Below are positions 16,944 through 43,271 of a stretch of DNA of 64,000 nucleotides, one piece after another. Within the stretch, counting starts at the first letter, position 1. Every line of letters starts with the position of its first letter. The DNA is taken from assembly GCA_965203325.1 (NCBI GenBank), contig OZ241875.1:3328001-3392000 (forward strand). Direction: 5' to 3'. Made by a program: the position numbers and the translations under genes. The notes below the pieces were generated by a model. It searched no databases and had not been told where the DNA came from. It was given only the letters and a program-made list of their open reading frames with translations. The DNA comes from a bacterium (lineage in GTDB: Bacteria; UBA8248).

Positions 16944-16946
16944 TGA

Positions 16947-22274: not shown

Positions 22275-22405
22275 TTCGTCAACTCAGCCGCAAAAAAACC
22301 ATGGACGTACGATCCCCGAAGTGGTGAAAGGGTTGCTCAATGCCAGCACGGATGTGAACGCAAAAGACGAGCCGGGAGGGACCTCGCTTATTTCGGCGTT
22401 GCAGG
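22275..22405 (+). pseudogene. Ankyrin-repeat fragment
   Basis: PEVVKGLLNASTDVNAKDEPGGTSLISA matches an ankyrin repeat. Confidence 0.55.
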
Positions 22406-22486
22406 ATGGTTGTCACCGGGCGGGGGTTTGTAAGTCGGAACGCTTCCCAGTTCCCCAGGAGGTCAGGCTAAATTCAGAATGGAAAG

Positions 22487-23227
22487 TCAAGGTTGTGTAA
22501 ATTGATCATTCAACAAGTTTTTGTCAATAATTGCAGTATCGAAAATTTCAATCAAATTCCGAGACTTTTCCCAGAAATCGATCACAAATTGATAATTTAC
22601 AATAACCTTATCATCAATTGTATAAGTAAACGTAGGATTAGAACTCTGAAAATCCGCGTTTACGCGACCATCTGAGTGGACAAGGAAATGACGGATCTCA
22701 AGATACGGTTTCAGATCGTCTACTACACAATCGGGCACCCCCAAGCCAAGTTTTGTACTAATCTTTTGTAATAGCTTCAGGCTGCTGCGTTCGTTTTCCA
22801 ACGCTTGAAATACAGCTTCAGCCACGTACTTACAGACCTCTTCCCAACTACCCAGCCTCAACAGCGTTTGAGCATCTGTACTGAATGAATGCTCTCCGAT
22901 CATGCGCCCACCATCGAACCCGCTCTGAGCAGCTTGCTCCAGAATCGTCTTCATGTAGTGCATGACTTCCTCATAAACATTTTTCACAAACGATCCGTAA
23001 ACTGTAGATCGGAGATGGTTGATCACTAATTCTCTACTTTTATCGCTGTTTGCCCGCCGTTCGAGATGAGAATGTCGATTAGGGTTAACTTTAGCAAGCA
23101 CATACTGTGATTTTTGATCTGTTAAATCATTTTTCAAAACCGATATCCGAAGAACGTCCAGCAACTCGATATCGTCCAAGAAGTAATTTACCTTGGTTTC
23201 AAAGCTTTGTCGGGCTTTTGAGGGCAT
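22487..23227 (-). CDS. HEPN-domain protein (putative RNase)
   Basis: Helical; YEE near N-terminal third; EIRHFLVHSDG (RxxxxH). Confidence 0.7.
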   Translation of the reverse strand: MPSKARQSFETKVNYFLDDIELLDVLRISVLKNDLTDQKSQYVLAKVNPNRHSHLERRANSDKSRELVINHLRSTVYGSFVKNVYEEVMHYMKTILEQAAQSGFDGGRMIGEHSFSTDAQTLLRLGSWEEVCKYVAEAVFQALENERSSLKLLQKISTKLGLGVPDCVVDDLKPYLEIRHFLVHSDGRVNADFQSSNPTFTYTIDDKVIVNYQFVIDFWEKSRNLIEIFDTAIIDKNLLNDQFTQP

Positions 23228-27269: not shown

Positions 27270-27404
27270 AAAGGATGCCACGGCCGGTCGAACGGCACCG
27301 CTCCTGCCCTCCATCCGCACCGGCCCGTTCTTGTCGGTCCCGTTGCGGACATCCGAAGCCCGGCCGGAGAATGCCCCGACAGACATCCGCCGGGATGCGC
27401 AGAT

Positions 27405-27553
27405 GCTGTAACGAATCCGCTTCCGACTTGATTACTTATTACAGAAACCGAGTCCCTAACAAAACTCCCAAAAAACAAATACCCACAATATTTTCAACAA
27501 ACTACAAAGACTTCACGTCCACTAGAAACCCCCCACCGCCTATAACCACGCGG
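27405..27553. repeat. ~150 bp diverged direct repeat, copy 1
   Basis: TGTAAC..CCGCTT.CG.CTTG.TTAC ... TTTCAACAAACTACAAAGA ... CCCCCACC..CACGCGG also at 37016-37162. Confidence 0.8.
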
Positions 27554-27849
27554 AAGGCAATATGCTACTTCTCAATTCCTCAGGCCGCCGGTTCCGTTTC
27601 GTGTTGTTCACAAGAACATCCGTGCTACAACCGCTTCGAACCTCGCAGGACGACATCACCTACTGGCTCTTCCCCAACAAATTCTGTGAAACTCGCCTTG
27701 AGGTTCACGTCAAAGTATAGGCCGAGTGTTCATCGCTCGCCCAGTCACGCAGTTCTCAGAGAGCGACACGTCTTGGCAGGACGGCTGAAGGCCGCCTAGG
27801 CGTACAGGCGTAAGCCACCTCGGCGTCGAGGCTCGTATCGGGGTGAAGC

Positions 27850-28050
27850 ATCGGCTGGAATCAAGCGTGCGCGGCTTCCAGTGGCGGGCGTGGCGTTCGA
27901 GGAACTCGTCCGCGAACTCCGCCATAAGGCGGCCGGGATATCTGGAACCCGTGCCCCTTCTCCTGCGGGTCGAGCAACGTCGGCAGGGTTCGGCGCGCTT
28001 CCTGGCGAGCCTTGGGTACGGCCATTCGGTCGGCGGAATTCTTCAGACTT
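27850..28050 (-). pseudogene. Tyrosine integrase N-terminal remnant
   Basis: SADRMAVPKARQEARR (arm-binding-like), frameshift, then MAEFADEFLERHARHWKPRTL. Confidence 0.6.
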
Positions 28051-28433
28051 CGCGCACCGCTGCTCGTTCGGTTATCTCAGCGCACAAGGCATCGCCGTAC
28101 ATGTTCCCGCAGCGCAGGGACAGGATGGGCAAGTGTCAGCCTACAAGGCGGTGGTTCTCCGCTCATTTGTTGCCGCAAGCGTAAGCGTGGGCGGCGCACC
28201 CGTTACTGCGGAGTAGTGGCTCGGGCACAATTGATCGATGCCGACGTATCCAGCGAGGGCGAGCGAGGCGAAGGTTGCGACGAGTTCAGCGCGAAGCACT
28301 GGTGTGAATGTTGGCCGATGCGCGGCTTGGGCGCGGTCACGTGAGGGAGCACCCAGTATTGATGGCGACCTTTCGGCAAGGTTCTACGGAGATATGGCGG
28401 ATGGGGCCACGTGACTGAAACCGCTTGTTCGGG

Positions 28434-30950
28434 TCAGAACCCACCCGGCATCGAAGGATCTAGCCCCTCTCCAATCAGATAGGGTGCGGTCCGCTCCACG
28501 AGGTTCCGTTCGAATTCTCGCCCGAATTTGGAGGCCCCCAGAAGCATATTGTATATTTCTTTGGCGTCTTCTCCGTGGGCATCAAACCATTTGGGATTGG
28601 CGTAACGAACTTGGCAGAGTCCGCGGTACCCCATTGTGATGTATCGCAACTCGATACTCGGTTCCCCGTTGCGCCGAGGTCGTTGGTCGTGAACGCCTTT
28701 AAGAAGATTTTCTAATTGTCGGTGCAGGAATCGCTTCACTCGTTGGAAGCGTTCCTCGTTCTCGTTTAGCACCTTGCTCACCGCAATTCTTCGCGCCATC
28801 GGGTGCGTCACCGCGGCGAGTAGAAATTTGTCTTGTTTCTGACCTCCAGTGCTCTCCCATTCTCCGATCAATGTATCGTAGATCGTCCTGAGGCTGTCCT
28901 CGCTCCGGGCGGCTCGTCCGACACCCGAGTAGATCGACCACGCCGAGTAGGGGTTATCGATATGGAGTGTACGTCCTCCCTTCCCTTGCGGGTTCTCTAT
29001 CGCATCCAGCAGTACTTCGACCGTTCGTTCCGGGCAGCTGGTGAAGAGCCAAGTGAGTGGCATGTGCAGTCGGTTCGCAGTTGCAGGTTTAAGTTTTTTT
29101 CGGCTGCTTATCCTGGACTCGAGGTCCCGAAGCAACGCGTCGGTAGATTCTCGCAGTAGTCTCAACGAAGCCTGGTGTTGCTGTGGATCATTCGTTCGAG
29201 GGGGTTGTCCATCCGAGCCTAGAGGGAATTTCCTCTCGTTCCACTGATTCTGTGTGCATGTGTACAAATCATCCTTGAGCTGGTAGTTGATCTCCTCCTC
29301 ACCAGCGTCGACTACCCGTTTGAGCAAAGGCTTGAGATCATTCCATCCCTCCTGGCTCGCCTCGAATATGTACAACTCGGGAATGCTGTGGAATGCCTCA
29401 GGGCGATCCGTGGCCATGTCACTCCATTTGATACTGGATCTGGATGCAGCGAGCGCCTCAACCGTGCCGTTCGGGAGGTGTTCAACGATTTCGAGCCGGG
29501 CTTCTTCGGAAAGCGGACGAACCCGTGCAAGGGGCTCCACGATTCTAACGTGATCGCTTGGCCGGATCGTGTGTCCGGTACTCCATCCGCTGTAGCGCTC
29601 GTCCCATGCCCCTTCGTTGCCCCGGCGAAGGTGAAGGTGGATGTGCTCGATGCCCGGTGCCAGGGTGACGCGTCGATCCTCATGGGGACGGGTATGGTAT
29701 GTCTCGCCCGCTGGGATCGCCTCATTCCGGGGCACTACCGACATCCATGAGGTATCCGTTTCCTTCCCATCGGTGCTTACTCGCTTACGAACTTCGAGAT
29801 CGATACCGGTCACTTCATCCAGCCAAGCTGGCGCCTGTGGATCACGCCCTAGGACATCCGCAAGGCGCGACGCCGCCCGAGCCGTATCCGCGCCGGTAAC
29901 ACGGAAAATTCGGATTCCTGCGGCGAGTTCCCGGACCAGTGCTTCGAAGCCAACTGTCATTTCGACACCGACGGGGCTCTCAACGACGATGGCGAGGGGA
30001 GTGCCTTCGGTCTGACTACGGAAATTTTCAATTCGCTGCATAAGAGCAGGCGGCAACGACGCCTTCGCCCACTGGATCGATGGTGCATCACGCCCCACCG
30101 CCCACGTTCCGCCCGCTATAGGCCAGCTCCGATGCTCGATCGCGTTCACATCGATACCTAGTTCCGCGAGCGCCTTCTGCGACATGCCTGTCGCGAGGAT
30201 CTCCACGTATCGCGTCCATCGGTGAATTGCTTCGAGGTCTTTGGCGCCTTGGTCTACCAGGGTCGTCCGTGTGGCCTGCGTCCTCCGTGCGGTCCACGCC
30301 TCATTCTCCTCGCAGTCATCCATCACGGGTTTCCTGACGATGTGCATTGGACCCGTGCTCGTACTACTTGATGGCCAAGCGCGAAGTTCCAGCACCGTCC
30401 AGAATATCCTTCGGTTGACGCTGATTACGAGAACGGTGCCGGGCTTGTCTCCGATTTCTCCTCGGTCCATTACCGCCTTCAGGGCTGCTACGGAGCGCCA
30501 GACCAGCTCGACTCGACTCCGAGTGAGCGTGGTAGGCCGTGCCTCTATCAGTGCGTAATGCAGTGTTTCCAGCGCGGTCTTGCCTGTATCTTCTTGAACA
30601 TTCGGGGTTCCGAGATACCGGCCATCCGGTATGACGAGGGCGAGATGGGCAGGGTTGTCCGTCCTCCGGGCTGCCTCCGTGACGAGTTGCCACAAGGCAG
30701 CGGGCAGTGCACTTCTGTTCTGTGGCGGGCATTTTCCGTGCCCGGCCGCGTAAGCAAGGGCGTCTATTGCGTCGATGAGCGTCGCCCTCGTTCGCGCGTC
30801 CCTTGCCGCTGAAAGTGCTTGCGCACCGAAGAGCCAGATATCCTTGTGTTGGTAAAGGCAAGACCGGAAGCCGAGAGCCCTTGCCTCTCCATCTTCGTCA
30901 ACCAGGTGGTCGAGCCAGCCGTTAACATCGAGGGTGACAAACTGAGTCAT
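28434..30950 (-). CDS. Large protein with divergent Hsp70/actin-like N-terminal domain
   Basis: FVTLDVNG, LALVIPD, ELVWRSVAA, VLVISV occur in Hsp70-NBD order; ATG 30950 is 1 nt after the upstream stop. Confidence 0.6.
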   Translation of the reverse strand: MTQFVTLDVNGWLDHLVDEDGEARALGFRSCLYQHKDIWLFGAQALSAARDARTRATLIDAIDALAYAAGHGKCPPQNRSALPAALWQLVTEAARRTDNPAHLALVIPDGRYLGTPNVQEDTGKTALETLHYALIEARPTTLTRSRVELVWRSVAALKAVMDRGEIGDKPGTVLVISVNRRIFWTVLELRAWPSSSTSTGPMHIVRKPVMDDCEENEAWTARRTQATRTTLVDQGAKDLEAIHRWTRYVEILATGMSQKALAELGIDVNAIEHRSWPIAGGTWAVGRDAPSIQWAKASLPPALMQRIENFRSQTEGTPLAIVVESPVGVEMTVGFEALVRELAAGIRIFRVTGADTARAASRLADVLGRDPQAPAWLDEVTGIDLEVRKRVSTDGKETDTSWMSVVPRNEAIPAGETYHTRPHEDRRVTLAPGIEHIHLHLRRGNEGAWDERYSGWSTGHTIRPSDHVRIVEPLARVRPLSEEARLEIVEHLPNGTVEALAASRSSIKWSDMATDRPEAFHSIPELYIFEASQEGWNDLKPLLKRVVDAGEEEINYQLKDDLYTCTQNQWNERKFPLGSDGQPPRTNDPQQHQASLRLLRESTDALLRDLESRISSRKKLKPATANRLHMPLTWLFTSCPERTVEVLLDAIENPQGKGGRTLHIDNPYSAWSIYSGVGRAARSEDSLRTIYDTLIGEWESTGGQKQDKFLLAAVTHPMARRIAVSKVLNENEERFQRVKRFLHRQLENLLKGVHDQRPRRNGEPSIELRYITMGYRGLCQVRYANPKWFDAHGEDAKEIYNMLLGASKFGREFERNLVERTAPYLIGEGLDPSMPGGF

Positions 30951-30951
30951 T

Positions 30952-32460
30952 TCAGGACGTAACCTTTGCGGCCCATTTCTCCAGCCTTGTATCCCAAGCG
31001 TGTGCGCGGTCCCATGGGAGTTCGCCGACTGATCCATCGTTGTCAATGTAGAGGTCCTGTGCGTCCCACCAGATATTGCATCTCGGACCGGCCGCGGCGA
31101 TTGCGCCGAGCAAGCCACCATCGTCATTGATTCGGTATTCTATGACCCTTAATGAGCTGTTGCTCGCAATCCCTAACGTAGATCGGATGCCTGCGTCCTG
31201 GAGATAACATCCCTGATTTGGTGCGTCTATTGTTCTAATGACAGGGCCGTGCGCAAGTATCCCGTTGTCAGCGCGGTCATGGATAGCTTGGTGGAGCTTC
31301 ATTGCCGCACGGAGCCCGAGCAACTCCATGAATGTTCGATGTTGCCACATCCATTCGAGTTCGGCGGCAGTACTTCTCGCGCGCAATTCCAGCCAAGCGC
31401 GCCAGATTTCCCGGTAGCGGGGGTCGAAGCGCAACGGAAAGTTGGGTTGAACGGGAGGTCTAGCCTCGGGCACCTCGCGTTCTCGAAGGATGCCCTCGAT
31501 GCGCCGAGCGCGGAGTTGGTGGGCCTCGATGATCGCCTTGCGCGCGCCGTCCATATCTGGCGCAGAAACACGGTTGGCGAGCCAGCCTTTCGTCTCCAGC
31601 ACCGTCAATGCTGCGAAGGCCCGGAGCACCCGATTTTCAAGGGTTGCGATAGTCTCGTATCGCTTCGGCGCCTTGATTCGCTGTCGGGCACCAGCCCGTT
31701 CGGCCGTGTTTCTACCAGGCTGGGCCGAAAGCCAACGGAGAGTCTTCGCGTCGGTGCGGTGCACTGTCTGAAGCTTTAGCATCCGGTGTTCGGTTCGAAG
31801 CACCGCTCGCGGTCGTTTGGCGAGATCTTCAAGCACGGCGCGTAACTGTCTTGCCTGCCTCGCAAGGAGTTCGCCTTGCGGATCGCCCTCTTCAAGCCGC
31901 TGGTCGTTCCAGATGCGCTCCAGCCGATCGTAGGCAGCCCCGATCGAGGGCTCGGTTGCAAATGCGCTTGGCGCCGCACTGAGCACCCTCCCGGCGCGCC
32001 TCAGGAGTATGACTCTGGGTCGTCGGGCCTGACCGTCACGGCGGCGATCATCCTGCGGCCTCTGCCAAGCTGTTACGTCCAAGACGAGAACTGTCCCTGG
32101 CTTCAGGGTGATCACCATCGTTCGATCCGTTCCGACGCGCCATGGGACGAGCCAAGCTTGTAACTTTTCCCCAGAGAATTGCTCACTTCCGGTGGTTCCT
32201 GCAAGCAGTTGACCTGGTTTCCGTCCCGGGATTCGGGGAAGTGGCTGACGGTGACGCCCTTCCAGAATTGGGTACTGCTGCGGTAGTTCCCCGCACTCAG
32301 CCACGATGACGGGCGGCCCTTTTCCATCAGTCGGAGACAGCCTTGTCCGGCAGTCGGGAGCGATTTTCTCCCACATTGCCGGGGCAACTCCGGCAGCTTC
32401 ACGACTGAATTCTTGGTATGACTCACAGAGCCACATGGTTGTCCGTCTCAGGATTTCCAT
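30952..32460 (-). CDS. McrC-like DUF2357 protein, nuclease motif not evident
   Basis: DAKTLRWLSAQPG, YETIATLENRVL, PNFPLRFDPRYREIW. Confidence 0.8.
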   Translation of the reverse strand: MEILRRTTMWLCESYQEFSREAAGVAPAMWEKIAPDCRTRLSPTDGKGPPVIVAECGELPQQYPILEGRHRQPLPRIPGRKPGQLLAGTTGSEQFSGEKLQAWLVPWRVGTDRTMVITLKPGTVLVLDVTAWQRPQDDRRRDGQARRPRVILLRRAGRVLSAAPSAFATEPSIGAAYDRLERIWNDQRLEEGDPQGELLARQARQLRAVLEDLAKRPRAVLRTEHRMLKLQTVHRTDAKTLRWLSAQPGRNTAERAGARQRIKAPKRYETIATLENRVLRAFAALTVLETKGWLANRVSAPDMDGARKAIIEAHQLRARRIEGILREREVPEARPPVQPNFPLRFDPRYREIWRAWLELRARSTAAELEWMWQHRTFMELLGLRAAMKLHQAIHDRADNGILAHGPVIRTIDAPNQGCYLQDAGIRSTLGIASNSSLRVIEYRINDDGGLLGAIAAAGPRCNIWWDAQDLYIDNDGSVGELPWDRAHAWDTRLEKWAAKVTS

Positions 32461-32463
32461 CCA

Positions 32464-34497
32464 TTAGTATGTGTAGCCCGGCCAAGTGAAGATTTGAGAA
32501 GCTTGAGAGGCAGTCGCGGCGTCCTGTAACGCTTCTGCAAAATCAGGGTCGCCCAAAGTGTCTTCGCTCAGTCGCCGCAGTCCATCGACGGTTTCCTGGC
32601 AGTCGCTCATTTCAGACCCAGCGAGCTTCGGAAGAAGACGCATGTTGATTTGGTCAATCATGGGAATCCGCCAGTCCTGTCCAGGGTATCGTTGGATGTA
32701 AGCCTTGATGCTCTGTGCAATTCGGTAACCAAACCCTCTTCCTGCGCTCTGCATCAATTTCGCGAGTTCTTCGAGTGTTTCGTCGACTTGTTGGGCTCCT
32801 GCCACGACTGTCGTTTGACGATCAGACCATTCGAGCCAACGCTTGTAGGGGAGATAGCCTGCGGCTTCCTCAACGCCGTGTTCGGGCGCAGCGCTGTGTT
32901 CGCGAAGCGTGCCCGGCTCGGGTGGTGCGAAGCGGATCGAGTTTGCTCGGTCCAGAACCTTGTCGGATAGCGCTTGGGTGGTCTCATCCTCGTTCAGCGT
33001 GCCGACCCAGAGGACATTGTGCGGCACATAGAGGTGTTTTGGGCGTTCGTTCTCGGCGTAAGGGAGATCGATCGCGATCTGTGCATCCTCGCGATCTTCC
33101 CAGTCTCCGTGTCCGTTTACCCGTGGCCCTCGCATTTCAAGCCTTGAAAGAAACTCGGAGAAATAGTACTCAGTTCGTGCGAGATTCATCTCATCAAGGA
33201 GGATAATGAGCATCCTCTCGTCCCAATCTCGGTCAGGTTCGATCCCAATGTCTTGCGCAAACTTCTTGTCAAAGCGCCCAAGTGCACGCGCCCGATCAGT
33301 GGGCCGATAGCGCTCTGCGACGAAGTCGTAAAAACCGAGGATATCCTGTGGTGAGTCCCAGCCCGGTTCCACAGGTACATGCAGGAAATGGATCCCGAAG
33401 AACCGGGCGTATGCTCTCGGAAGCTGGCTCTTGCCGGTGCCGCTCAGCCCGCTCAGCACGGTCAGGGGCGAGAGGTCATTCACTTTCAACGCCGTGTGGA
33501 AGGCGCGGATAATTTGCCCTGGATACCGTAGCCCCAAATCCTTCAAGGTGATCTCAAACTCGGTGAGCAGATCGTCTTCGGTCGTTTCTGCGCGCATTTC
33601 CTTATATCCAAGCAAAGAGTCCGGAGTGATCCGGAACGCGCTCAGCTTTTCTTCACTAGAGGCGTCTGTGTCACCATCCGGCATTTCTCCTCGTCTCGCC
33701 GCGAGCTCCGTAGTGGCGTGGTTTAAGGCCTCATTGGTCTCAGCGAGGCGTTTCTGGCGTCCGGTCAACTCTTTGTTCAGGTCCTCCATCTGGTCCTTGA
33801 GTTGATTCACTTCCCCAAGAAGACGTTCATTTTGTGGTTTCAAGGTATCTGTCTGCTCTTGTTTTATTCGCTCAAGCAACTCCTGAGCCTCTTTGGTTTC
33901 GTCATTGAGACGCTCTCTCTTGCTCTCGAGCCTCCCTGCCTCATCTTCGGCCTGCGAACGCCGAGCGTCGGCTACGGCGTATTCTTTCTGAGCATCCTCG
34001 GTCGCCTGTCTCAGCTTGTCGTAGGCTTCCATCCTTTCGGCAAGCAGTTCTTTCCAGGCGCTTTCGCTTCCTGTCATCTCGGGCGGATAGGGATCGAGTG
34101 CTGCTTGAATCTCTCGAAGTCGCTGACCGGCCTCGGCTCGTCGGAGTTCAAGTTCGTCGATACGTTTCGATTCCTCTCTTTCGAACTCCTCCAGTTCTTG
34201 GCGCATCGCTTCGAGATTCTCATGATCGCGCCGAACTGCTTCCCAACGGTCTAGAGCATCTTGGGCTCGGAGCCCGTCTTTGAGGATCGCCTCCCGCTTC
34301 GCGCGCAACTCTTCAATCTCAGCTAACTCGTTGGCTCTTGCTTGTCTGAGCGCTTCAATCGATTGCTCCTCGGTTCCGCGGCTTTTCAGCCCATATAGTT
34401 GTCCTATAAGGAACATGACAACGAGCAATGCGAACATGGCTCCGAAGAGCATAAACTCGACAGCATTCCCATCGAGGCTGAGGCCGCCAACCGTCAT
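32464..34497 (-). CDS. McrB-like AAA+ GTPase with N-terminal TM helix and long coiled coil
   Basis: FMLFGAMFALLVVMFLIG; heptad region; Walker A GLSGTGKS, Walker B LLDEMNLA, NEDE motif, LSDKVLDR. Confidence 0.9.
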   Translation of the reverse strand: MTVGGLSLDGNAVEFMLFGAMFALLVVMFLIGQLYGLKSRGTEEQSIEALRQARANELAEIEELRAKREAILKDGLRAQDALDRWEAVRRDHENLEAMRQELEEFEREESKRIDELELRRAEAGQRLREIQAALDPYPPEMTGSESAWKELLAERMEAYDKLRQATEDAQKEYAVADARRSQAEDEAGRLESKRERLNDETKEAQELLERIKQEQTDTLKPQNERLLGEVNQLKDQMEDLNKELTGRQKRLAETNEALNHATTELAARRGEMPDGDTDASSEEKLSAFRITPDSLLGYKEMRAETTEDDLLTEFEITLKDLGLRYPGQIIRAFHTALKVNDLSPLTVLSGLSGTGKSQLPRAYARFFGIHFLHVPVEPGWDSPQDILGFYDFVAERYRPTDRARALGRFDKKFAQDIGIEPDRDWDERMLIILLDEMNLARTEYYFSEFLSRLEMRGPRVNGHGDWEDREDAQIAIDLPYAENERPKHLYVPHNVLWVGTLNEDETTQALSDKVLDRANSIRFAPPEPGTLREHSAAPEHGVEEAAGYLPYKRWLEWSDRQTTVVAGAQQVDETLEELAKLMQSAGRGFGYRIAQSIKAYIQRYPGQDWRIPMIDQINMRLLPKLAGSEMSDCQETVDGLRRLSEDTLGDPDFAEALQDAATASQASQIFTWPGYTY

Positions 34498-35471
34498 CGC
34501 GAGGTCTCCGTTCCTTCGTTGGTTCGTTGTGCGTCATTCAGTTCATCAATCATGGCGCGTATCCGCTGGCGGGCCTTTGCTTCCAGGCCAATGAGATCTT
34601 GGAGCCGGGCAGAAGCCGCTTCTTCTCGGGTTTTCACGGTTGTCAACTTGGCCTCCGCCCTGATCAGCTCGTCCCTGGTTCGGTCGCGTTTCTCCTGGAC
34701 CGTTGCTAGTGTAGTGCGTATGGTTTGGATCTCGCCTTGGAGGTTCGCAAGCCGTGTGGTTTGGCGCTGGTTTCCTCTCTTGAGTTCGTCCTTCTCTTCT
34801 TTCAACCGTGCGATCTCATTGCGGATTCCCTGCGCCTCCGCAGTCAATCCCTTGAGTTCTGCTCGTATCGATTCCAGCAGCCGACCTGTGCTGGCGGCAT
34901 CGGACTCGTCCTGCAACAACTTTTGCTTTTGCGCGGCGTGTGCGCCTTTGGTCTGTGCCAGATTCTGCAATACTACGCTCAACTCCTTTCGCACCTCGTC
35001 TCGGCGCTTCCGTTCCGCCTCGGATCGCTTTGACAGATCATTGATTTCATCTTTGTAACTCTTGATTGACCCGGTGAGTTGATCTCCCCTTGTTTTCAGC
35101 ATGCCTATATCCGAGTTGAGGGCTGCCACTTCTTTCGCCAGGCGGTCGCGCGCACCGCGTGTTCTTGTTTCTTCTGCTTGTAGGTTTGGCAGTTTCTTGG
35201 CGATGGTGCTGGCTCGTTCGGCTTTCATCTCTAGATCCGCGAGTTCCGCCTTCCGCTCCGCTATCTTTGCGATCAGTGAATTACGTTCTTGCCGTAAGCC
35301 CGGCAGGCGGGCGGCGATATCAGCAGCCTCTCTCCGGTTCTCGGGCAAAGTCAGAATTTCCTCTCCAATCGCCACGCACGCCAGTGCAAGTATCACCGTA
35401 ACGACCGCCAGAAGCCCGATTGTGAGTCCAACGGTGCGGCGTTGGCGCTTGGCTGTATCCGATGTTGTCAT
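34494..35471 (-). CDS. Membrane-anchored coiled-coil protein
   Basis: VGLTIGLLAVVTVILALACVAIG followed by continuous heptads; ATGA overlaps at both ends. Confidence 0.85.
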   Translation of the reverse strand: MTTSDTAKRQRRTVGLTIGLLAVVTVILALACVAIGEEILTLPENRREAADIAARLPGLRQERNSLIAKIAERKAELADLEMKAERASTIAKKLPNLQAEETRTRGARDRLAKEVAALNSDIGMLKTRGDQLTGSIKSYKDEINDLSKRSEAERKRRDEVRKELSVVLQNLAQTKGAHAAQKQKLLQDESDAASTGRLLESIRAELKGLTAEAQGIRNEIARLKEEKDELKRGNQRQTTRLANLQGEIQTIRTTLATVQEKRDRTRDELIRAEAKLTTVKTREEAASARLQDLIGLEAKARQRIRAMIDELNDAQRTNEGTETSR

Positions 35472-36460
35472 GCGTTCTCCTCCGTCGTGCGATCGCGACC
35501 GGCAAGCGGCACCGCTGACGCAGCTTCCTCGGCGATGTGTTTGATGCATTCCATTTCATCTCGTTCAATCTCGTCGGTCCAGAGCCGTATCGGTCGCCAG
35601 CCAAGTCGTTTAAGCACTCGATCCCGACGTTCGTCTTCAGGCCGGCGGCGGTTCGGCAGCTCTTCGTGCCAGTGGCGTCCGTCAACTTCAACGTCTAGCC
35701 TTACGGGCAGTCCGCTGGCGTTGCCGATTACGGCGAAATCAAGGAAGTAATGGGATACCGGGTGTTGCGGAATGGGATCCAGTCCCGCGGCAGTGAGCGT
35801 CTCGCCGAAGCGACGTTCGATTTTTGATCTGCGTGGGAGCGGCCTGAACAAAGGATCGTGATAGAACTGCCAGCGCTGTCGCGCCACTCGGTGGAGGTCA
35901 TCCTCGGCACTTGAGGCAGCGCAGAGTGCTGCAATGAGGTGGACTGTCAGGCCGCGATTTCTCGCTGCCTCGAGCATGCGGCGAAACGGCGGACAAGGGG
36001 CTGGACGTTCGACCCAGTCTCGTCGCGCAATGAGCAGGTCTGGACGTTCGTAGGCACTTTCGATATATGTGACCATCTCCTCAGCCGTCGTCTCGTCTGC
36101 CAGGATGATGCGAAGCTGCCCCGCCTCGCGCCTTACAATCTGGATTTCGTTCTCTGCGGTCTGCGCTGTCAGTCCCGCCTCGGTAAAAGTCCAGCCGATC
36201 ACTGGCGTGTTCGTCTGCAACAGTCGCCATCGGTTCAAGCCATTGAGGGTTAACTCCCCTCGGACGAGGGCCTTTCGGATTGTCTCAAGATGGGTTTGGC
36301 CGAATTGTCTTGGCCGATATGTTCTCAGCCTTCCTCCCAATGGGCGCCGGAGATACCGGCTATGCTGTGCTGGTCCAAGGTAAATCGGTTGGGTCACAGT
36401 CGGTGCTTCCCTTGGTGTGGTTTCACCCCACCTGTAGAGTGTTGCATGCCGTAGCGACAA
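35468..36460 (-). CDS. Protein with C-terminal DUF559/Vsr-like endonuclease
   Basis: SKIERRF..QHPVSHYFLDFA..DVEVDGRHWH..DERRDRVLKRLGWRPIRLW. Confidence 0.85.
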   Translation of the reverse strand: MSLRHATLYRWGETTPREAPTVTQPIYLGPAQHSRYLRRPLGGRLRTYRPRQFGQTHLETIRKALVRGELTLNGLNRWRLLQTNTPVIGWTFTEAGLTAQTAENEIQIVRREAGQLRIILADETTAEEMVTYIESAYERPDLLIARRDWVERPAPCPPFRRMLEAARNRGLTVHLIAALCAASSAEDDLHRVARQRWQFYHDPLFRPLPRRSKIERRFGETLTAAGLDPIPQHPVSHYFLDFAVIGNASGLPVRLDVEVDGRHWHEELPNRRRPEDERRDRVLKRLGWRPIRLWTDEIERDEMECIKHIAEEAASAVPLAGRDRTTEENA

Positions 36461-36569
36461 TGGTGCAGTTCGTGAAGCTTTGTTGGTCCCTGTGAAAGGA
36501 AAGCTTGTCCGCCTCGGCTACTGCCGGTTATAAGTCTTGCAGCACTTATTGCAATTCATTTTCCGTGTT

Positions 36570-36815
36570 CCAGGGTCGCCGGTGAACGGTATTTCCGTTA
36601 CCCGCACACTCAAGGCTCCTGTCGGGACAGGGTTCCTTGCGCTTCCTCATGCCCGTTGCACACAATTGCCGGATTCATCCTTATTCTACAAAATTCGTCT
36701 GTCTTTTGCGTATTTTTTGTCTTTGGTTTCATGCATTTATAGCACATTTATATATTTTTCGCCTTGGCATCCGGTCACGGGAGGCAGGTGATATGAAGGA
36801 AAGCAGCGAGGCGGG
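36570..36815. repeat. Second copy of the AT-rich divergent regulatory block
   Basis: Aligns with 25860-26105. Confidence 0.75.
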
Positions 36816-36985
36816 ACACATCTCGCGGCCGTGTGCGGCGCTTGCGCTGATCACCGCGAGCCCCGACCCAGAGACCGTGCTACGTGAGGTGGTGGAAGGC
36901 ACCCGCGCGCTCACTAGCGCGGGCGACGGCGTGATCCCCACGGTGGACGAATCGGGAGGGCCGCGGTAGTTCGTCATCGAATACC
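36793..36985 (+). pseudogene. GAF-domain sensor N-terminal remnant
   Basis: ITASPDPETVLREVVEGTRALTSAGDGVIPTVDESG then a stop. Confidence 0.6.
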
Positions 36986-37015
36986 TCGACAGGGGTGCTT
37001 CGCACTGCGCGGGAG

Positions 37016-37162
37016 TTGTAACTTACCCGCTTTCGGCTTGTTTACGGATTGCGGAAGGCGAATTCTGAAAGAGACCTCCATATACCAATACTGACAATGC
37101 TTTCAACAAACTACAAAGATTCCCCGTCCGCTGAACCCCCCCCACCCCCTGAAAACACGCGG
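37016..37162. repeat. ~150 bp diverged direct repeat, copy 2
   Basis: Aligns with 27405-27553. Confidence 0.8.
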
Positions 37163-37252
37163 GAGAGCGGGATGCGCGCCCCCTCCCGCCGGGCGTCCGG
37201 GCGTCAATACGGGCAGCGCCAGGCAGCCGTGCAATGCGGGAGACCGCGCCGG

Positions 37253-38183: not shown

Positions 38184-41100
38184 TCAGAACCGCAGGCTGA
38201 GGTCGAGCCCCAGTTCGTGCTCGGGCTCGGACACGGCGCTCTCGCGCCGCTCGCCCGCCAGTTCCACGCGAAGGTCCGCGCCCCGCGCCTCGTACCGCGC
38301 ACCGAGCCTGAGGCGCCGGCTCTCCCCGCCGGCGAGGCCGGCTTCCGCGAACGGCGTCAGCACCCCGCCCGACGCCGTCCCGAACCCGTAGCCGACCTGC
38401 GCGTCGAGCGCGCCGTCGTCGCCCGAAGCCGCCGGGTTCGGCATCTCCTCCGCCCACAGCGCCCGCGCGCCGCCCGTTCCCGCGCCCCAGCGGGGCGCGA
38501 GCGCGAAGAACAGGCCGCGGCCGCCGGCGCCCGGACCGGCGCGCACCGTCAGGCTCACGCCCCGCTCCTCCGCACCCTCCTCGCTGTGCGCCGCGAGCCA
38601 GCGCCCGCGCATCTCCACCGATATCCCGGGCGCCGCGTAGCGCACGCCGCCGGCGAGCTCGAACCCGCTGCCCTCGAGCCCGTCGCCGCCGTCGTGGCGC
38701 ACCGCCGCCTCCAGGAAGGGCTCCAGGCTGCTCTCGCCCGCCAGCGCGAAGCGCCGCGAGGCCTCGAGCCCCGCCCGCAGCCGCCAGCTGTCGGCGGAGA
38801 GCCCGTGGATCGCGTCCGGGCCGTCATCGGTCTCCATCTGCGTGACGCTCGCGTCGGCGCGCACCGCCAGCGCCGCGCCGGCGAGTCCGCCGAGCGCACG
38901 CCTGACCCCCACCGACGCCATCCGCATCGTGAGGTCGCCGGTCTCCGCGTCCGCGTCCCCGGGCTCATGGCGCGCCTCGCCCCAGCCCGCGCCCGCCACC
39001 GCGCGCAGCTCCAGGCCGTCCGCGAGCGTCCAGCGCCCGTAGGGATAGACCGCCGTCAGCGTCGTCTCAAGCCGGCCCCGGCCGGTGAGCGCGCCCCCGG
39101 CGAAGGAATAATCCGCCTCGCCCGTCCCGCGGCTCACCGCGAGGCCCGCCACCCACGGGTCCGAGCGCCCGTCCACGCCCAGCCAGCCCGTGCGCAGCTT
39201 CCCGTCGTAGCGGAGCCCCGTCTCGCCGCCTCCCGCGAACGTCCCGAGATCCCCCCGGCCCCACACCGCCCACTGCGGCCCCGCCGGGCCGGCGTCCTCC
39301 GCCGAGGCGAGACGCACCGAGAAGGCGCTCGCGCCGAACAGGTCGGACGCCGCAAGCGCCCGGCTCTCCGTGCAGCCCAAAGCCGGCACAAGGCCGGCGG
39401 CGGCGTACCGCTCCGGCGCGCAATCGCGCAGCGCGTAGGCCGCGGCGGAACCATCGAGCGACACCGCCTGCCCGGCCAGCGTCACGCCGCTCGCGCCGAT
39501 GTCGGCGAACCTGCCCCCGATGTTGTCCAGCGCGCTCGCCGTCGCCCTTCTCGCCACCGCCGCCAGCGCGCGCCTCACAGCGCCCTCAACCGCCGCGCGC
39601 CGCGGGTCCGCCGCCACCGCGACCACGAAGGTGAGCGCCGCCTCGTCGCCGTCCGCGTCCCGCACCGTCCAGGTGTAGCGCCGCGACCCCTGCGACCGCG
39701 ACGGCGTTCCGGTCAGCCTCCGCGTGGCCCCGTCTAAGCTCAGCCCCGGGGGCGGGGAAGGCGCCAGGCGGTAGGTCAGCGTCCCGTCGCCGCCCGTCGC
39801 CGCCGGAAGCGCCAGCGCCGCGATCGCCGTGCCCGCCGTCCATGACTGGTCCGCGACCGCCGCGTCGCCGAACGACGGCATCAGGTTCTCCTCCACCTCG
39901 ACCGTGAAGGTGAGCGCCGCTTCGTCCCCGTCCGCGTCCCGTACCGTCCAGGTGTAGCGCACCGGCCCCTGCGGGGTGTCCGGCGTGCCGCTCAGCGTGC
40001 GCGCGCCCAGGTCCAGCGCCAGGCCCGAAGGCGGCTCGGGCGTCAGGCGGTAGGTCAGCGTCCCGTCGCCGCCCCTCGCCGCCGGAAGCGTCAGCGCCGT
40101 GATCGCCGTGTTCTGCTTGTACGACTGCGCGGCGACCGCCGCGGACCCGAAGCTCGGCGTCAGGTCCGGCGCGCCGCCACCGCCTCCGCCCCCGCCTACA
40201 TTGCCGCCACCTCCGCCTACATTGCCGCCCCCGCCGCCGCGGTCGTCGTCCCGGATCGTAATCTGCACAGAACGCGGGCTGCCCGCCGTCACCTCAGACG
40301 GCAGCGTCCCCAGCGCCACCGTGAACGTCTCGTCGTCGGTGTCGCTGTCCTGCGCCGTGGTGATGGTCCCCGTTCCGTTGGTCGCGCCCGAGGCGATCGT
40401 GATGCCCGTCAGCGTCCCGTGGTCCTCGGGCTCGGCCGTGCCGTCGGTGATCGTCAGCGGTATCGTCACGCTGTTCGACAGCGCCGCCGACAGCGTCGCC
40501 GTCACGGTCACGCTCGATCCCTCCGCCACCGTCGGCGAGGCCGACAGCGTCACCGTGGGCGTGGTCGTGTCCAGCGTCGCCACGGCCCCCTCGGTCGTGC
40601 CCGTCGCGTGCGCCCAGAAGCCCTTGCCGCTCGCGTTCTCCGCGCGCACCCGCACCCGGTAGGTCGTGCCGTCGTCGAGGCCCGTGATCGCCTGCGAGGC
40701 CGCCGTGCCGCTGCGGCTCACCGCCACCCATTCCGTCGCCACGTTCGTGCCCACGGCCGCGCCGGCGGCGACCGTGTTCGATGCGGTATAGTGCACGTCG
40801 TAGCCCGTCAGCGTCCCCGAGGGCGCCGTCCAGGCGAGGTCCAGCCTGCCGTCGCCGGGCGTCACCGTCAGGCCCGCCGGCGCGGCCGGCGCGTTCTGCG
40901 CATGCCGCGTGACGGTGACCGTCCAGGTCGTGTTGGCCCCCTGCCCCAGCGTCGACGACGCCACCACCTCGATGGCGTTCGCGCCGGCGTCCAGCGCGAT
41001 CGCCCCGCTCGTGTCGCCGCTTGTCAGCGACACCGCGGCGGCGCCCCGCTTGCCCACCGACAGCACGTACCCCCCCAGCACGCCGACCGTCGGCCTCGCC

Positions 41101-43271
41101 TTCACGTGCGTCACCGCGTGCGGCACCGCCGCCGTGTAGTCCGTCACGCGCGGCGAGAAGCCCGGGCTCAGCGCCAGCGCGTCGTAGCTCGCATTCTCGC
41201 CCTGCGCCTTGGTGAGCGCCAGGCCCGTCAGCAGCAGGCCCTCCGGCGTGCCCGCGCCCTCCACCCAGGGGCTCACCAGCCTTCCGCCGGCGTTGCTCGC
41301 TCGCACCCGCACCCGGTAGCGCTGCAGGTTCCGGCCCCTGACCGTGTACGAGGTCGCCGTGGCATCGTTGTGGGGCCCGCTCGCGCGCTGGAGCGCCACC
41401 CAGCCCACGGCCTCGTCGACACCGCGCGCGCGGGCGTCCGCCGCGACGGCGGTCGAGGTGGTGTAGTCCACCCAGTAGGCCGTCACCGTCCCCACCGGCG
41501 GCGCCGTCCACGACAGGTCCAGCCTCCCGTCGCCCGGCGTCACCGTCAGGCCGGTCGGCGCCGCGGGCGCCAGCGCGGCCTCCACCGGCGCCGTCCAGAC
41601 GCCCGCGGACATGCCGTCGCGCTTCACCGAGCGGACCCGCACCAGGTAGGTCTCGCCGACGGCCAGGCCCGTGAAGGTGTGGCTCGTGCCCGTCACGTCC
41701 GTGTCGGTGTTCGGCCAGGCCGCGGCCGACTTCAGCTTGCTCTGCACCTCGTAGCGCACCACGTCCACGCCCGCCGGCGCCTTCCAGCGCGCCGTCAGCT
41801 CGCGGTCTCCCGGCCTCAGCGTCAGGCCCGACGGGACGTTCGAGCTCGGCGTGCCGGTGGCGAAGACGTAAGCGCCCTCCGGGCCCGCCGTGCGCAGGCG
41901 CACCCGGTACGCCCTGCCGTTGGTCAGGCCGGTAATCGTGTACGAGGTGTCGGTGTCGTCGACATCAGCAGACACGGCCACCCAGTGCGTGGCCGCGTTC
42001 GAGCCCGAGCTCGCCGCGGCGTCGGCGACCGCGCCGGCGCCCGTCCTCGGCGCCGAGGTGTAGTCCAGCTCGTAGCCCACGAAATCCCCGTCGGGCCGGG
42101 TCCAGGTTACGAGGAGCTGCGCATTGCCCGGCGTGACCGTCAGGTCGGGAAGGCCGAGCGCCTCCGGCGTGCCGGCGCCGAACGCCCAGGCGCCGTCGCC
42201 CCCGGCGCTCGTCGCCCGCACCCGCACCCGGTGGGCGGACCCGCTCGGCAATCTGCCAATCCTGTGCGAGGTCCTCGCGCCGTGACCGTTGCGGGACACC
42301 GCCACCCAGCCAGTCGCGCCGTTGGTGCCGGCCTGCACCGCCGCGTCGTTCGCGACCGTGTCCACGGTCGCCGACGTGTAGTGCACGTCGTAGCCCGTCA
42401 CCGTCCCCGGCGGCGCCGTCCACGACACGTCCAGCCGCGTCGGGCCCGGCGTGACGCGCAGACCCGTCGGCGCGGCCAGCGGCACCGCCGCGCCGTTGAC
42501 GCGGATTTTCATCGACCGACCACTAAATTCGGCGGTCCAGGTCGACGAAGCGGTCGGCGCGGCGGATCCGTTTCGAAAGTAGTTACCTGCGTTGGCGATG
42601 CTCCAGCCGGCGGCCGCTCCGCTGTCTTCCGCATCAGCGGCGTTATGCGTGAGCCTAAAGGTGGTGAGAGTCTCGGCAGTGGTGTAAACGACCACGTGGT
42701 ATTCGGTGCTCGCCGCGAGCGTGGTGCCTGCCGGCGCCGAAAAGGTGGAGGCCCTTGCGCCCGTCGGGAAGCTCGAGGGGACTGTCAGGTCCGCGAGCTT
42801 CGACCCGGGCTTGCCGCTGCTGGATGACCAAAGCTCCGCCTCGATCGTCGCAATCTGCTGCGCGGTCAGGGCGGCGGTAGTGACGTTCGTACGTATCTCG
42901 ATGCTTTCGAGGGTGTAGCCGCCGCCGTTGGCGCCTGTCGTGAAGCCTTGAGCGCGGGCGAATACTCTGGCCGTTTGCGGGTTATCTGCCCCCGTCTGCC
43001 CGATGTTGCTCACGAGCACGTCGGCGGAGGCCGGCGCGGCGGCGAACGGGGAGAGCAAGAACGCGCCGAGCAGCAGCGCGAGGACGGGAAGGAGGAGGGA
43101 GAGGCGGCGGGCGCGGGGGCGCCCGGAGCGCGGCTCAGGCTTGCGCCTGGAACCTGGCCGGGAATGCGGGACGCCGTTCGGGCCGCTCGTGCCGCCCTTT
43201 TCTTCGGATGACGGATGACGGACCATGCCGCCCCCGGTTGCAAGCCTCTCCATGCGATGTCTCATTTTCAT
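38184..43271 (-). CDS. Large autotransporter adhesin (FN3 repeats, cadherin-like, Calx-beta-like, two Ig repeats, beta-barrel)
   Basis: Extended signal peptide; about five LxVTPG..L.WTAP..Y.VRVR repeats; two LP.A.GGDGTLTY.L repeats; C-terminal LDLSLRF. Confidence 0.9.
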   Translation of the reverse strand: MKMRHRMERLATGGGMVRHPSSEEKGGTSGPNGVPHSRPGSRRKPEPRSGRPRARRLSLLLPVLALLLGAFLLSPFAAAPASADVLVSNIGQTGADNPQTARVFARAQGFTTGANGGGYTLESIEIRTNVTTAALTAQQIATIEAELWSSSSGKPGSKLADLTVPSSFPTGARASTFSAPAGTTLAASTEYHVVVYTTAETLTTFRLTHNAADAEDSGAAAGWSIANAGNYFRNGSAAPTASSTWTAEFSGRSMKIRVNGAAVPLAAPTGLRVTPGPTRLDVSWTAPPGTVTGYDVHYTSATVDTVANDAAVQAGTNGATGWVAVSRNGHGARTSHRIGRLPSGSAHRVRVRATSAGGDGAWAFGAGTPEALGLPDLTVTPGNAQLLVTWTRPDGDFVGYELDYTSAPRTGAGAVADAAASSGSNAATHWVAVSADVDDTDTSYTITGLTNGRAYRVRLRTAGPEGAYVFATGTPSSNVPSGLTLRPGDRELTARWKAPAGVDVVRYEVQSKLKSAAAWPNTDTDVTGTSHTFTGLAVGETYLVRVRSVKRDGMSAGVWTAPVEAALAPAAPTGLTVTPGDGRLDLSWTAPPVGTVTAYWVDYTTSTAVAADARARGVDEAVGWVALQRASGPHNDATATSYTVRGRNLQRYRVRVRASNAGGRLVSPWVEGAGTPEGLLLTGLALTKAQGENASYDALALSPGFSPRVTDYTAAVPHAVTHVKARPTVGVLGGYVLSVGKRGAAAVSLTSGDTSGAIALDAGANAIEVVASSTLGQGANTTWTVTVTRHAQNAPAAPAGLTVTPGDGRLDLAWTAPSGTLTGYDVHYTASNTVAAGAAVGTNVATEWVAVSRSGTAASQAITGLDDGTTYRVRVRAENASGKGFWAHATGTTEGAVATLDTTTPTVTLSASPTVAEGSSVTVTATLSAALSNSVTIPLTITDGTAEPEDHGTLTGITIASGATNGTGTITTAQDSDTDDETFTVALGTLPSEVTAGSPRSVQITIRDDDRGGGGGNVGGGGGNVGGGGGGGGAPDLTPSFGSAAVAAQSYKQNTAITALTLPAARGGDGTLTYRLTPEPPSGLALDLGARTLSGTPDTPQGPVRYTWTVRDADGDEAALTFTVEVEENLMPSFGDAAVADQSWTAGTAIAALALPAATGGDGTLTYRLAPSPPPGLSLDGATRRLTGTPSRSQGSRRYTWTVRDADGDEAALTFVVAVAADPRRAAVEGAVRRALAAVARRATASALDNIGGRFADIGASGVTLAGQAVSLDGSAAAYALRDCAPERYAAAGLVPALGCTESRALAASDLFGASAFSVRLASAEDAGPAGPQWAVWGRGDLGTFAGGGETGLRYDGKLRTGWLGVDGRSDPWVAGLAVSRGTGEADYSFAGGALTGRGRLETTLTAVYPYGRWTLADGLELRAVAGAGWGEARHEPGDADAETGDLTMRMASVGVRRALGGLAGAALAVRADASVTQMETDDGPDAIHGLSADSWRLRAGLEASRRFALAGESSLEPFLEAAVRHDGGDGLEGSGFELAGGVRYAAPGISVEMRGRWLAAHSEEGAEERGVSLTVRAGPGAGGRGLFFALAPRWGAGTGGARALWAEEMPNPAASGDDGALDAQVGYGFGTASGGVLTPFAEAGLAGGESRRLRLGARYEARGADLRVELAGERRESAVSEPEHELGLDLSLRF

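Follow-up and report, generated by a model that had tools for sequence, protein, structure and literature searches.

The CoCoNuT systems described by Bell, Sahakyan, Makarova, Wolf and Koonin (eLife 2024; PMC11090510) are the closest known relatives of the operon examined here. In that paper, Type III-B has a Vsr effector but no HEPN domain; CnuA (coiled-coil) and CnuD (Hsp70-like) are encoded as proteins of their own alongside CnuB and a CnuC whose nuclease is dead. McrC acts as a GTPase activator for McrB. Anti-phage and RNA-targeting activities of CoCoNuTs are given there as predictions only, and a literature search found no experimental study of any CoCoNuT. Within the window, a 64,000-nucleotide stretch of bacterial DNA, five genes at 28434..36460 very probably form a helicase-free variant of Type III-B.

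Gene order and relationship to Type III-B

All five minus-strand open reading frames were confirmed with the junctions first described: ATGA overlaps at g1/g2 and g2/g3, a 3-nt gap at g3/g4 and a 1-nt gap at g4/g5. The genes, with the evidence for each in brackets, are:

35468..36397, minus strand: g1, short counterpart of CnuHE, 309 aa (Pfam, family alignment, model, dN/dS)
34494..35471, minus strand: g2, CnuA, 325 aa (hydropathy, flanking charge, -3/-1 small-residue pattern)
32464..34497, minus strand: g3, CnuB, 677 aa (motifs, Rhizobium homology, charge pattern)
30952..32460, minus strand: g4, CnuC, 502 aa (Pfam, profile-profile match)
28434..30950, minus strand: g5, CnuD, 838 aa (AlphaFold, Foldseek, VIA, family HMM)

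The longest g1 reading frame opens at TTG 36460; the 309-aa form is present in the protein database, and GTG 36397 is probably the start. Homologues of g4 mostly begin at its ninth residue as called. A search for sigma-70-like promoters at the operon found none, terminator counts there were at chance level, and PADLOC matched no complete system.

The first-pass annotation had described a tightly coupled five-gene operon related to CoCoNuTs and proposed it as a candidate new defence system. Both the coupling and the kinship held, the latter gene for gene (nuclease, CnuA, CnuB, CnuC, CnuD), while the novelty was overstated, as PMC11090510 already defines the same five-part Type III-B. An operon of the same order on a Rhizobium plasmid encodes a helicase-Vsr protein of 1032 aa and CnuA to CnuD of 446, 673, 498 and 786 aa, and the best plasmid matches of our CnuB are III-B-type Rhizobium operons (44% identity over 378 aa, E = 8e-100). 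The 90% cluster of the Rhizobium CnuB contains PDS29319.1, of the same accession series as PDS29263.1, a Type III-B CnuD example in PMC11090510.

CnuA consists of a basic N-terminus, one hydrophobic segment and a long coiled coil; its profile matches are to coiled coils only, all below cut-off, and a separate coiled-coil-only protein between the nuclease gene and cnuB is what III-B has at this place. CnuB combines an N-terminal TM helix, a coiled coil of ~260 aa and an McrB-like AAA+ GTPase with an NxD motif. SMC/Rad50-type matches span residues ~44-276, the fused coiled coil of CoCoNuTs. The Walker A motif is found at 350 and Walker B near 433. The NxD motif, the N-E-D-E reported by the first-pass annotation, lies at 502; it and the other GTPase motifs are unchanged in 16 of 16 short-form rows, in keeping with CoCoNuT GTPases. 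CnuB matches AAA_5 weakly (Pfam, E = 0.002) and the PADLOC profile PDC-M26A more strongly (E = 6e-36), the latter over the coiled coil and P-loop only; the term PDC-M26 was not found in the literature.

The earlier readings of g4 as McrC-like with no visible PD-(D/E)xK motif and of g5 as Hsp70-like were both upheld. The N-terminal McrC domain of g4 matches DUF2357 (Pfam, E = 7e-7), and residues 97-470 align with full III-B-type CnuC (profile-profile probability 100%, E = 1.7e-44). The C-terminal part is poorly conserved: among 31 aligned sequences, no residue is invariant after G417 and no PD-(D/E)xK residues are conserved. A DUF2357 McrC homologue, tightly linked to a separate nuclease where McrC is inactive, is the CoCoNuT arrangement, and the CnuC of Type III-B is described as having an Ig-like N-terminus and a PD-(D/E)xK fold that has been inactivated. 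While g5 matched nothing in Pfam or PADLOC, its AlphaFold model (pLDDT 88.5) resembles DnaK/Hsp70 (Foldseek E = 1e-10; VIA Z 21.6, rmsd 3.6, 314 aligned), and its top VIA match is the ribosome-associated Ssz1, within 1 Z of DnaK. In the model, residues of about 1-510 form Hsp70-like nucleotide-binding and substrate-binding domains and those of about 530-825 an all-helical region, the layout of a separate III-B CnuD (HEAT likeness aside). The family HMM matches Rhizobium CnuD (E = 3e-13), and the first phosphate-loop-like motif is conserved and the second altered. CnuC-CnuD fusions exist (P0052, P0130), implying that the two proteins act together.

The short first gene and the membrane segments

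What sets the operon apart from published III-B is the short form without helicase, and this difference is real: the first gene encodes ~300-340 aa here versus ~1,030-1,100 aa in helicase-Vsr proteins. The C-terminus of g1 matches PF18741 (E = 3e-14) and PF04480 (E = 2e-8), and residues ~190-295 form a Vsr/DUF559/MTES_1575 nuclease resembling 3hrl (VIA Z 12.4, rmsd 2.3, 91 aligned) and Vsr itself (1cw0; Z 9.8, rmsd 3.3, 106 aligned). Both Pfam and fold thus identify the Vsr-like PD-(D/E)xK effector of Type III-B. Residues E194, D220, E237, D239, G240, H244 and R258 are invariant in 49 aligned sequences, and the nuclease looks intact. The search for relatives found 58 other short proteins.

As the first-pass annotation had stated, the operon has no intact SF1 helicase or HEPN gene and its only recognisable nuclease gene is the first; this "separate" nuclease, however, is CnuHE's own C-terminal portion (43% identity to the Rhizobium helicase-Vsr over 92 aa). 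The wHTH, OB fold and Walker A/B RecA1 lobe are absent from g1, which therefore lacks the fused Upf1-like SF1 helicase with N-terminal wHTH of III-B, and none of 49 family members matched AAA_11 or AAA_12. By model and fold search, residues ~60-180 form an alpha/beta domain similar to the C-terminal of the two RecA lobes in Upf1-like helicases: residues 61-180 match Upf1 with Z 7.2 (rmsd 3.3, 112 aligned) and SETX, Sen1 and IGHMBP2 with Z 7.0-7.1. The second RecA lobe of the helicase is the probable origin of this domain, with moderate support from fold and no significant support from sequence. Profile-profile comparison gave a local probability of 1.7% (P = 0.03), HMM comparison over 18 helicases a best E of 0.08, Foldseek no match at E <= 0.001 and an ESM Atlas search a single uninformative match at 0.77. 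Global profile alignment runs collinearly, although the Vsr part supplies the score. Since Hef, a non-Upf1 helicase domain, and thymidine kinases score like Upf1 against residues 61-180, Z values near 7 may reflect merely a common alpha/beta arrangement.

Two other readings of the short gene were considered. A one-off truncation or pseudogene of cnuHE is ruled out by the short-protein family, dN/dS and the clade described below. As for a helicase encoded as a separate gene nearby, no match was found upstream in the genome itself or at 20 of 20 short loci, of which 12 include 3.5 kb or more upstream.

Hydropathy over 19 residues peaks at 2.83 in CnuA and 2.57 in CnuB. The first-pass annotation had taken the N-terminal TM helices as a distinguishing feature; since such segments are also present in 16 of 16 CnuA and 16 of 16 CnuB proteins of helicase-bearing III-B-type loci, they do not distinguish the short operon. 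Lys and Arg are more numerous after the TM segment of CnuB at 32 of 32 loci, and net charge is higher before the hydrophobic segment of CnuA at 31 of 32 (these counts and the signal counts omit L077, whose start was mis-called). On hydropathy and flanking charges only, CnuB is predicted to lie N-out/C-in with its GTPase inward, and CnuA N-in/C-out with its coiled coil outward. A signal-peptidase-like site occurs in CnuA at 13 of the 16 short loci but at none of the 16 full ones, by a rule set after the sequences were seen, and short-clade CnuA may be cleaved by signal peptidase. A cleaved signal, which had been listed as counting against a membrane-tethered GTPase, is thus possibly present in g2 (-3/-1 small-residue pattern); the idea of a tethered GTPase itself survives, and the charge pattern adds support.

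With Type III-B, the operon shares the order nuclease-A-B-C-D, an NxD coiled-coil McrB, a Vsr effector, separate CnuA and CnuD (the latter with a helical tail), a DUF2357 CnuC without catalytic motif and the absence of HEPN and TerY-P; the hydrophobic segments of CnuA and CnuB are also common to both, and none of the six passages of PMC11090510 that mention "transmembrane" reports them. The short form is set apart by its first gene and by its separate long-stem clade, and shows occasional CnuC-CnuD fusion. Type III-C, as represented by a Synechocystis pSYSX-like locus assigned from gene content (L023), shares the DUF2357 CnuC, an NxD CnuB whose N-terminus carries a hydrophobic segment (hydropathy 2.39) and, according to the paper's account of this type, a separate CnuD, but differs in its PLD effector, gene order, lack of CnuA and distant CnuB. 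In Type III-A, CnuC is joined to an Hsp70-like and helical module, which the rare fusions here resemble, but there is also a HEPN effector, full helicase and TerY-P; of three III-A-like CnuB proteins tested, none had the N-terminal TM. CoCoPALM (PMC11090510, section 7) shares an McrB GTPase fused to a TM and coiled-coil segment, but its defining features are a neighbouring gene of the signal-peptidase family and an McrC with a coiled coil, and that section's passage on it describes no CnuD or Vsr gene; a SipA-like signal peptidase is absent from the five-gene operon and as a conserved neighbour. E. coli McrBC shares an AAA+ GTPase with an McrC-family partner (distant NCBIfam McrB match, E = 0.006), whereas the short operon lacks the methyl-DNA-binding domain, has NxD rather than NxxD and places the nuclease in a separate protein.

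Distribution, phylogeny and selection

Scanning genome contigs with g5 alone gave no match, while an alignment query gave 20 loci. The five genes occur in order at 11 of these, bearing out the expectation of a conserved gene order, with a split or shortened gene in 3 of the 11. Eight of the 20 are fully intact, across diverse taxa, and two retain a cnuD fragment only. Ten of 37 metagenome loci are of the short type, five of those with the five genes in order. Within the host phylum, the operon is present in 1 of 51 genomes. The short form recurs across unrelated lineages and is probably horizontally mobile.

Among 253 flank ORFs of the 20 loci, there was no conserved flanking gene and no trace of a TerY-P module, which III-B also lacks. 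Two copies of a dispersed intergenic repeat flank the operon in the window:

27396..27556, no strand assigned: repeat copy downstream of the operon (BLAST)
37006..37165, no strand assigned: copy of the same repeat upstream of the operon (BLAST)

The copies are 71% identical over 161 nt, and the repeat has 25 non-self BLAST matches in the genome, 15 being 90 nt or longer. They bracket a ~9.6-kb segment of lower GC, and a contig joint 27362-37102, skipping 9,739 bases, was seen in two of four runs. Defence-like genes lie 5-16 kb from the operon.

Short forms make up one clade in both the CnuB tree (16 of 16 rows, 100/100, on a long stem) and the CnuD tree (13 of 13). The trees left out cnuB ORFs under 500 aa and cnuD ORFs outside 750-950 aa; they and the charge counts also omit the near-duplicate or contig-end short loci L048, L050, L051 and L053-L056. 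Outgroup rooting (four proteins; 24 rows, reduced set) placed the root on the long stem leading to the short clade, an outcome probably due to long-branch attraction. AU tests on the same reduced set of 24 rows were neutral (p = 0.35 and 0.38), and a joint clade of the short form and III-B was neither recovered nor rejected in the CnuB tree (p-AU 0.35). The tree therefore does not demonstrate that the helicase was lost.

For g1, dN/dS was 0.31, 0.29 and 0.16 over residues 30-186 in three pairs, and 0.30 and 0.21 over the Vsr part. Values were below 1 in every computable region and pair, mostly 0.1-0.4. Thus, the short-form operon is under purifying selection.

A full III-B operon, its helicase-Vsr protein 1096 aa long, is present in the source genome as well, and one CnuB query detects both copies. 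The same query gave a single CnuB-like match in 10 of 10 other genomes with the short form, whose completeness is not given. Helicase-Vsr ORFs of ~1,030-1,080 aa occur elsewhere in two of these ten, and weaker relatives of 1,500-1,950 aa in four more; in four of the ten, the only match to the full helicase-Vsr query was the short gene itself.

A possible mechanism and competing explanations

We consider it likely that the operon is an active defence system, and reasonably probable that it is a functional, horizontally mobile, helicase-free III-B variant, most likely directed against phages or mobile elements. CnuB would sit in the inner membrane through an N-out/C-in helix, its coiled coil and GTPase ring cytoplasmic, and the coiled coil of CnuA would be exported and anchored or released, as an outer sensor or spacer. 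Nuclease-dead CnuC would serve as GTPase activator and as an adaptor holding CnuD, an Hsp70-like scaffold or ligand binder that is probably ATPase-poor. When a phage infects or the envelope is disturbed, the GTPase cycle would license g1 to cut nucleic acid with its Vsr domain. The target would be the genome entering near the membrane or, in abortive infection, the host's own nucleic acid; the leftover RecA-like lobe of g1 might be a docking or nucleic-acid-binding module. That the trigger is coupled to the envelope is possible, if somewhat less than probable. The full proposal, a so far undescribed stand-alone CoCoNuT subtype without the Upf1-like motor, is put forward tentatively: infection would be sensed across the inner membrane by the exported, perhaps released, coiled coil of CnuA, and the membrane-anchored McrB GTPase coupled to it would switch on a small Vsr nuclease.

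Vsr-family enzymes are mostly DNA nickases, which speaks against an RNA-targeting reading: CnuD would bind to RNA or to ribosomes, RNA would be the substrate of the Vsr domain, the membrane helices would do no more than position the complex, and the helicase would have been an accessory. This reading, which we regard as unlikely though deserving of weight, draws on the argument for RNA targeting through CnuD in PMC11090510, on the kept CnuD fold with its conserved first phosphate-loop-like motif and on the top match to Ssz1, tied with DnaK. However, the III-B parts most tied to RNA (the Upf1-like motor, OB fold and wHTH) are absent here, and simple localisation leaves the opposite orientations of CnuA and CnuB unexplained.

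The predicted exported coiled coil and anchored GTPase could instead belong to a membrane GTPase machine for conjugated-DNA exclusion, symbiont-related stress or another envelope task, and the lack of both conserved defence neighbours and a complete PADLOC match fits this. We think such a role improbable: McrBC ancestry and the kept nuclease fit defence, as do the patchy spread in the host phylum and the defence-like genes 5-16 kb away. It is quite improbable that the operon is a satellite dependent on a helicase supplied in trans, whether by a full III-B operon or as another Upf1-like helicase. The full operon of the source genome, the helicase-Vsr ORFs in two of the ten other genomes and the weaker relatives in four more would permit this; against it stand the single CnuB-like match in all ten, of completeness not given, and the four in which the short gene is the only helicase-Vsr match. 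Broken copies at several loci and the absent motor would suit a decaying III-B relic spreading without function, but purifying selection already largely refutes this very improbable reading, and the unchanged GTPase motifs, invariant nuclease residues and eight intact loci also oppose it.

In the published model, the Upf1-like helicase is central to Types II and III (PMC11090510). Since the short-form clade keeps the remaining components under purifying selection without the motor, it shows the core parts of the system. The repeated occurrence of this reduced form, in many bacteria that are not related, offers a natural experiment on the system's true requirements, and the presence of both full and short operons in the source genome makes a direct side-by-side test possible. 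The predicted opposite orientations of CnuA and CnuB, in full III-B-type loci too, point to an envelope trigger that is not part of the published account. If the membrane-anchored switch proposed above is correct, III-B-type systems would be triggered at the envelope instead of keeping watch on ribosomes or RNA, and the McrB motor would be used as a signalling switch rather than as a DNA translocase.

Operon anatomy and match to Type III-B CoCoNuT

The operon consists of five minus-strand genes, given in operon order by window position:

35468-36397, minus strand: g1, short counterpart of CnuHE, 309 aa (longest ORF from 36460); Pfam MTES_1575/DUF559
34494-35471, minus strand: g2, CnuA, 325 aa; sub-threshold Pfam coiled-coil families only
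32464-34497, minus strand: g3, CnuB, 677 aa; weak Pfam AAA_5
30952-32460, minus strand: g4, CnuC, 502 aa; Pfam DUF2357
28434-30950, minus strand: g5, CnuD, 838 aa; no Pfam match

Two junctions are ATGA overlaps, and the others are gaps of 3 nt and 1 nt. A structure model of g5, built from a 42-sequence alignment (pLDDT 88.5), resembles Hsp70/DnaK (Foldseek E 1.3e-10), and VIA aligned 314 residues of its nucleotide-binding domain at Z 21.6 and 423 residues of the 2-510 part at Z 20.8; residues ~530-825 are wholly helical. The anatomy described in the first-pass annotation was borne out.

The bulk of this architecture has already been published as Type III-B CoCoNuT (Bell et al., 2024; PMC11090510). 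That type is defined by a wHTH-helicase-Vsr fusion (CnuHE), a CnuA made of coiled coil only, an NxD CnuB, a CnuC with a dead nuclease, and CnuD as a separate protein resembling Hsp70. The best plasmid matches to the g3 GTPase were rhizobial (identity 43-44%). At the R. leguminosarum locus, a 1032-aa helicase is followed by proteins of 446 and 673 aa, a DUF2357 protein of 498 aa and one of 786 aa; g1, g3, g4 and g5 pair in order with genes of this locus (E 6e-22, 8e-100, 3e-22 and 2e-7), and g2 matches its counterpart weakly (E 0.009). PDS29319.1 (R. phaseoli) sits in the 90% cluster of the R. leguminosarum-locus CnuB, and the Type III-B CnuD example given in PMC11090510 is PDS29263.1. The R. 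leguminosarum-type operon is probably the III-B of that paper. Judged by its genes, the window operon would work like a Type III-B CoCoNuT without one defining feature: Type III-B carries a helicase in CnuHE, whereas the window operon has none. Because of this, we class it as a variant of III-B rather than a member. No description of a helicase-free CoCoNuT form was found in the literature searched, which did not extend to the III-B table of PMC11090510.

The first gene

Gene 1 is the true difference between the window operon and III-B. A search with g1 limited to 169-541 aa recovered 60 proteins: the query, one helicase fragment and 58 others of 207-365 aa that carry nuclease Pfams only. Searching for longer forms, we recovered 14 helicase fusions, which matched only 20-44% of the query. 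None of 18 helicase sequences matched at any of 20 short-form loci (20/20), at least 3.5 kb of upstream sequence being present in 12.

In the g1 model (pLDDT 79.8; residues 1-31 low), residues ~61-180 fold as an alpha/beta domain and residues ~190-295 as a Vsr domain, which matches 3hrl at Z 12.4. Many top structural matches of the alpha/beta domain are C-terminal parts of Upf1-family helicases (Z: Upf1 7.2, SETX 7.1, Sen1 7.1, IGHMBP2 7.0, ZNFX1 6.4); a Z near 7 is middling, and thymidine kinases and other helicases reach like scores. The alpha/beta domain occupies the place of the RecA2 lobe (AAA_12, 765-958), which precedes Vsr in the full protein, and g1 residues 94-288 align with the genome's own full CnuHE (31%, BLAST). 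Profile tests of the N-terminal part alone against the helicase were non-significant. We consider this domain probably a remnant of the RecA2 lobe. An SF1 motor is not possible from one RecA lobe without Walker motifs. The domain has been retained: its dN/dS is 0.16-0.31, and residues 47-91 include ten invariant positions among 49 sequences.

Conservation, spread and possible mobility

Using a CnuD alignment, we found 20 genome loci. Eleven have five genes in the same order, with a first ORF of 301-352 aa; eight are intact, and one each has a split cnuB, an interrupted cnuD and a shortened cnuD. The rest are one locus cut by a contig end with a CnuC-CnuD fusion, six short contigs and two with a cnuD fragment only. 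Metagenomes yielded 37 loci. In 10 of them the match to the short gene extends outside its nuclease domain (all five genes present in 5, the other 5 truncated where the contig ends); the remaining 27 are helicase-Vsr genes or fragments, with CnuB, CnuC and CnuD downstream in 13. The CnuB tree joins the short forms in one clade on a long stem (16/16 rows, 100/100), from a bootstrap that had not fully converged; they also make up one clade in the CnuD tree (13/13). The root of the CnuB tree had no resolution; the inferred loss of the helicase from the short form therefore rests on its presence in Types II, III-A, III-B and III-C, as described in PMC11090510, and not on the tree.

CnuC-CnuD fusions inside the short clade (L002:3744-7469 and protein P0130; 1241 and 1360 aa) parallel the CnuCD of Type III-A, and locus L002 has additional partial cnuD 3′ copies at 10269-14699. 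CnuA ranges from ~250 to 700 aa and is internally duplicated at several loci, and some CnuB coiled coils are likewise duplicated. This variation (L001:4121-8478, L004:2308-3687, L007:6123-8540, L010:939-2777, L015:4969-6558, L049:4873-6960) suggests a tunable ruler or a fast-varying sensor.

The window's genome also carries a full III-B operon at C1:601252-612721 (L024:5253-16722, plus strand), with a 1096-aa helicase-Vsr, CnuA, CnuB, CnuC, CnuD and TM segments; in the CnuB tree it is not sister to the window copy. Ten of 10 other short-form genomes gave a single CnuB-like match, the same query finding both copies in the window's genome, and in 4 of these 10 the full helicase-Vsr had no other match. 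Helicase-Vsr ORFs related to CnuHE (about 1,030-1,080 aa) occur at L036 and L037 (genomes G007 and G002); each of these genomes has just one CnuB match, in a short operon distant from that ORF.

Within the host phylum, only the window's genome matched (1/51). Among named homologues of g5, one in a Nitrospinae MAG is the closest (88%); the other loci belong to Paracoccaceae, other Alphaproteobacteria, Arenicellales, Pseudomonadales and Ca. Porisulfidus. We take several of these taxa to be sponge symbionts. Most of the operon is also covered in sponge metagenomes, by two runs of a single study.

GC is 0.53-0.64 in the ~9.6-kb segment that holds the operon, against 0.61-0.80 in flanking 500-nt windows. 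Neighboring features are:

27396-27556 and 37006-37165: two copies of a dispersed intergenic repeat, bracketing the operon
38184-43271, minus strand: high-GC gene whose 1695-aa product carries several fibronectin III, Ig and cadherin-like domains, adjoining the operon

The repeat has 15 other matches of at least 90 nt in the genome, and a 92%-identical operon at L047 has different flanks and a related copy upstream. The repeat may mediate cassette gain or loss. A contig joint leaving out 27362-37102 (2/4 runs, from two studies) is only suggestive of an operon-free allele, because its short side is 60 nt. At a distance of 8-16 kb from the operon there are defense-like genes (DUF2971, HNH, C5 methylase, HATPase). 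The low-GC island at 12454-23227 holds DUF2971, HNH, C5 methyltransferase and HATPase/kinase-like genes, an unannotated 411-aa ORF, response-regulator-like in look, and an unannotated 246-aa ORF (22487-23227), HEPN-like by eye.

Membrane segments and a model

The first-pass annotation had treated N-terminal TM helices as distinguishing, a view that did not hold: CnuA and CnuB have an N-terminal hydrophobic segment at 16/16 short-type and 16/16 helicase-bearing loci (19-residue mean 1.76-3.23; L077, with a mis-called start, was excluded from these and the charge counts). No such segment was found in CnuB of three III-A-like loci and one type-I-like locus, labeled by gene content. "Transmembrane" is used 6 times in PMC11090510, never about III-B.

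K/R is richer after the CnuB segment in 32/32 loci. CnuA net charge is higher before its segment in 31/32 (K/R alone: before in 26, ties in 4, after in 2). Flanking positive charge indicates the cytoplasmic side (the positive-inside rule), so the CnuB coiled coil and GTPase are predicted to face the cytoplasm and the CnuA coiled coil to face outward. Small residues at -3/-1, ahead of the first acidic residue, occur in 13/16 short-clade CnuA vs 0/16 at full loci; because this rule was chosen after the sequences were seen and the rows are kin, predicted cleavage of short-clade CnuA is a lead only.

Across the short clade the CnuB GTPase motifs are unaltered, and the g1 nuclease residues are invariant (49 aligned sequences). 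No conserved catalytic set was found in the CnuC alignment. CnuD keeps the first of two motifs that we take, from Hsp70, to be phosphate-loop-like, and not the second. The simplest model, predicted from sequence, is that a GTPase switch linked to the envelope would act through CnuC and CnuD to license the small Vsr nuclease.
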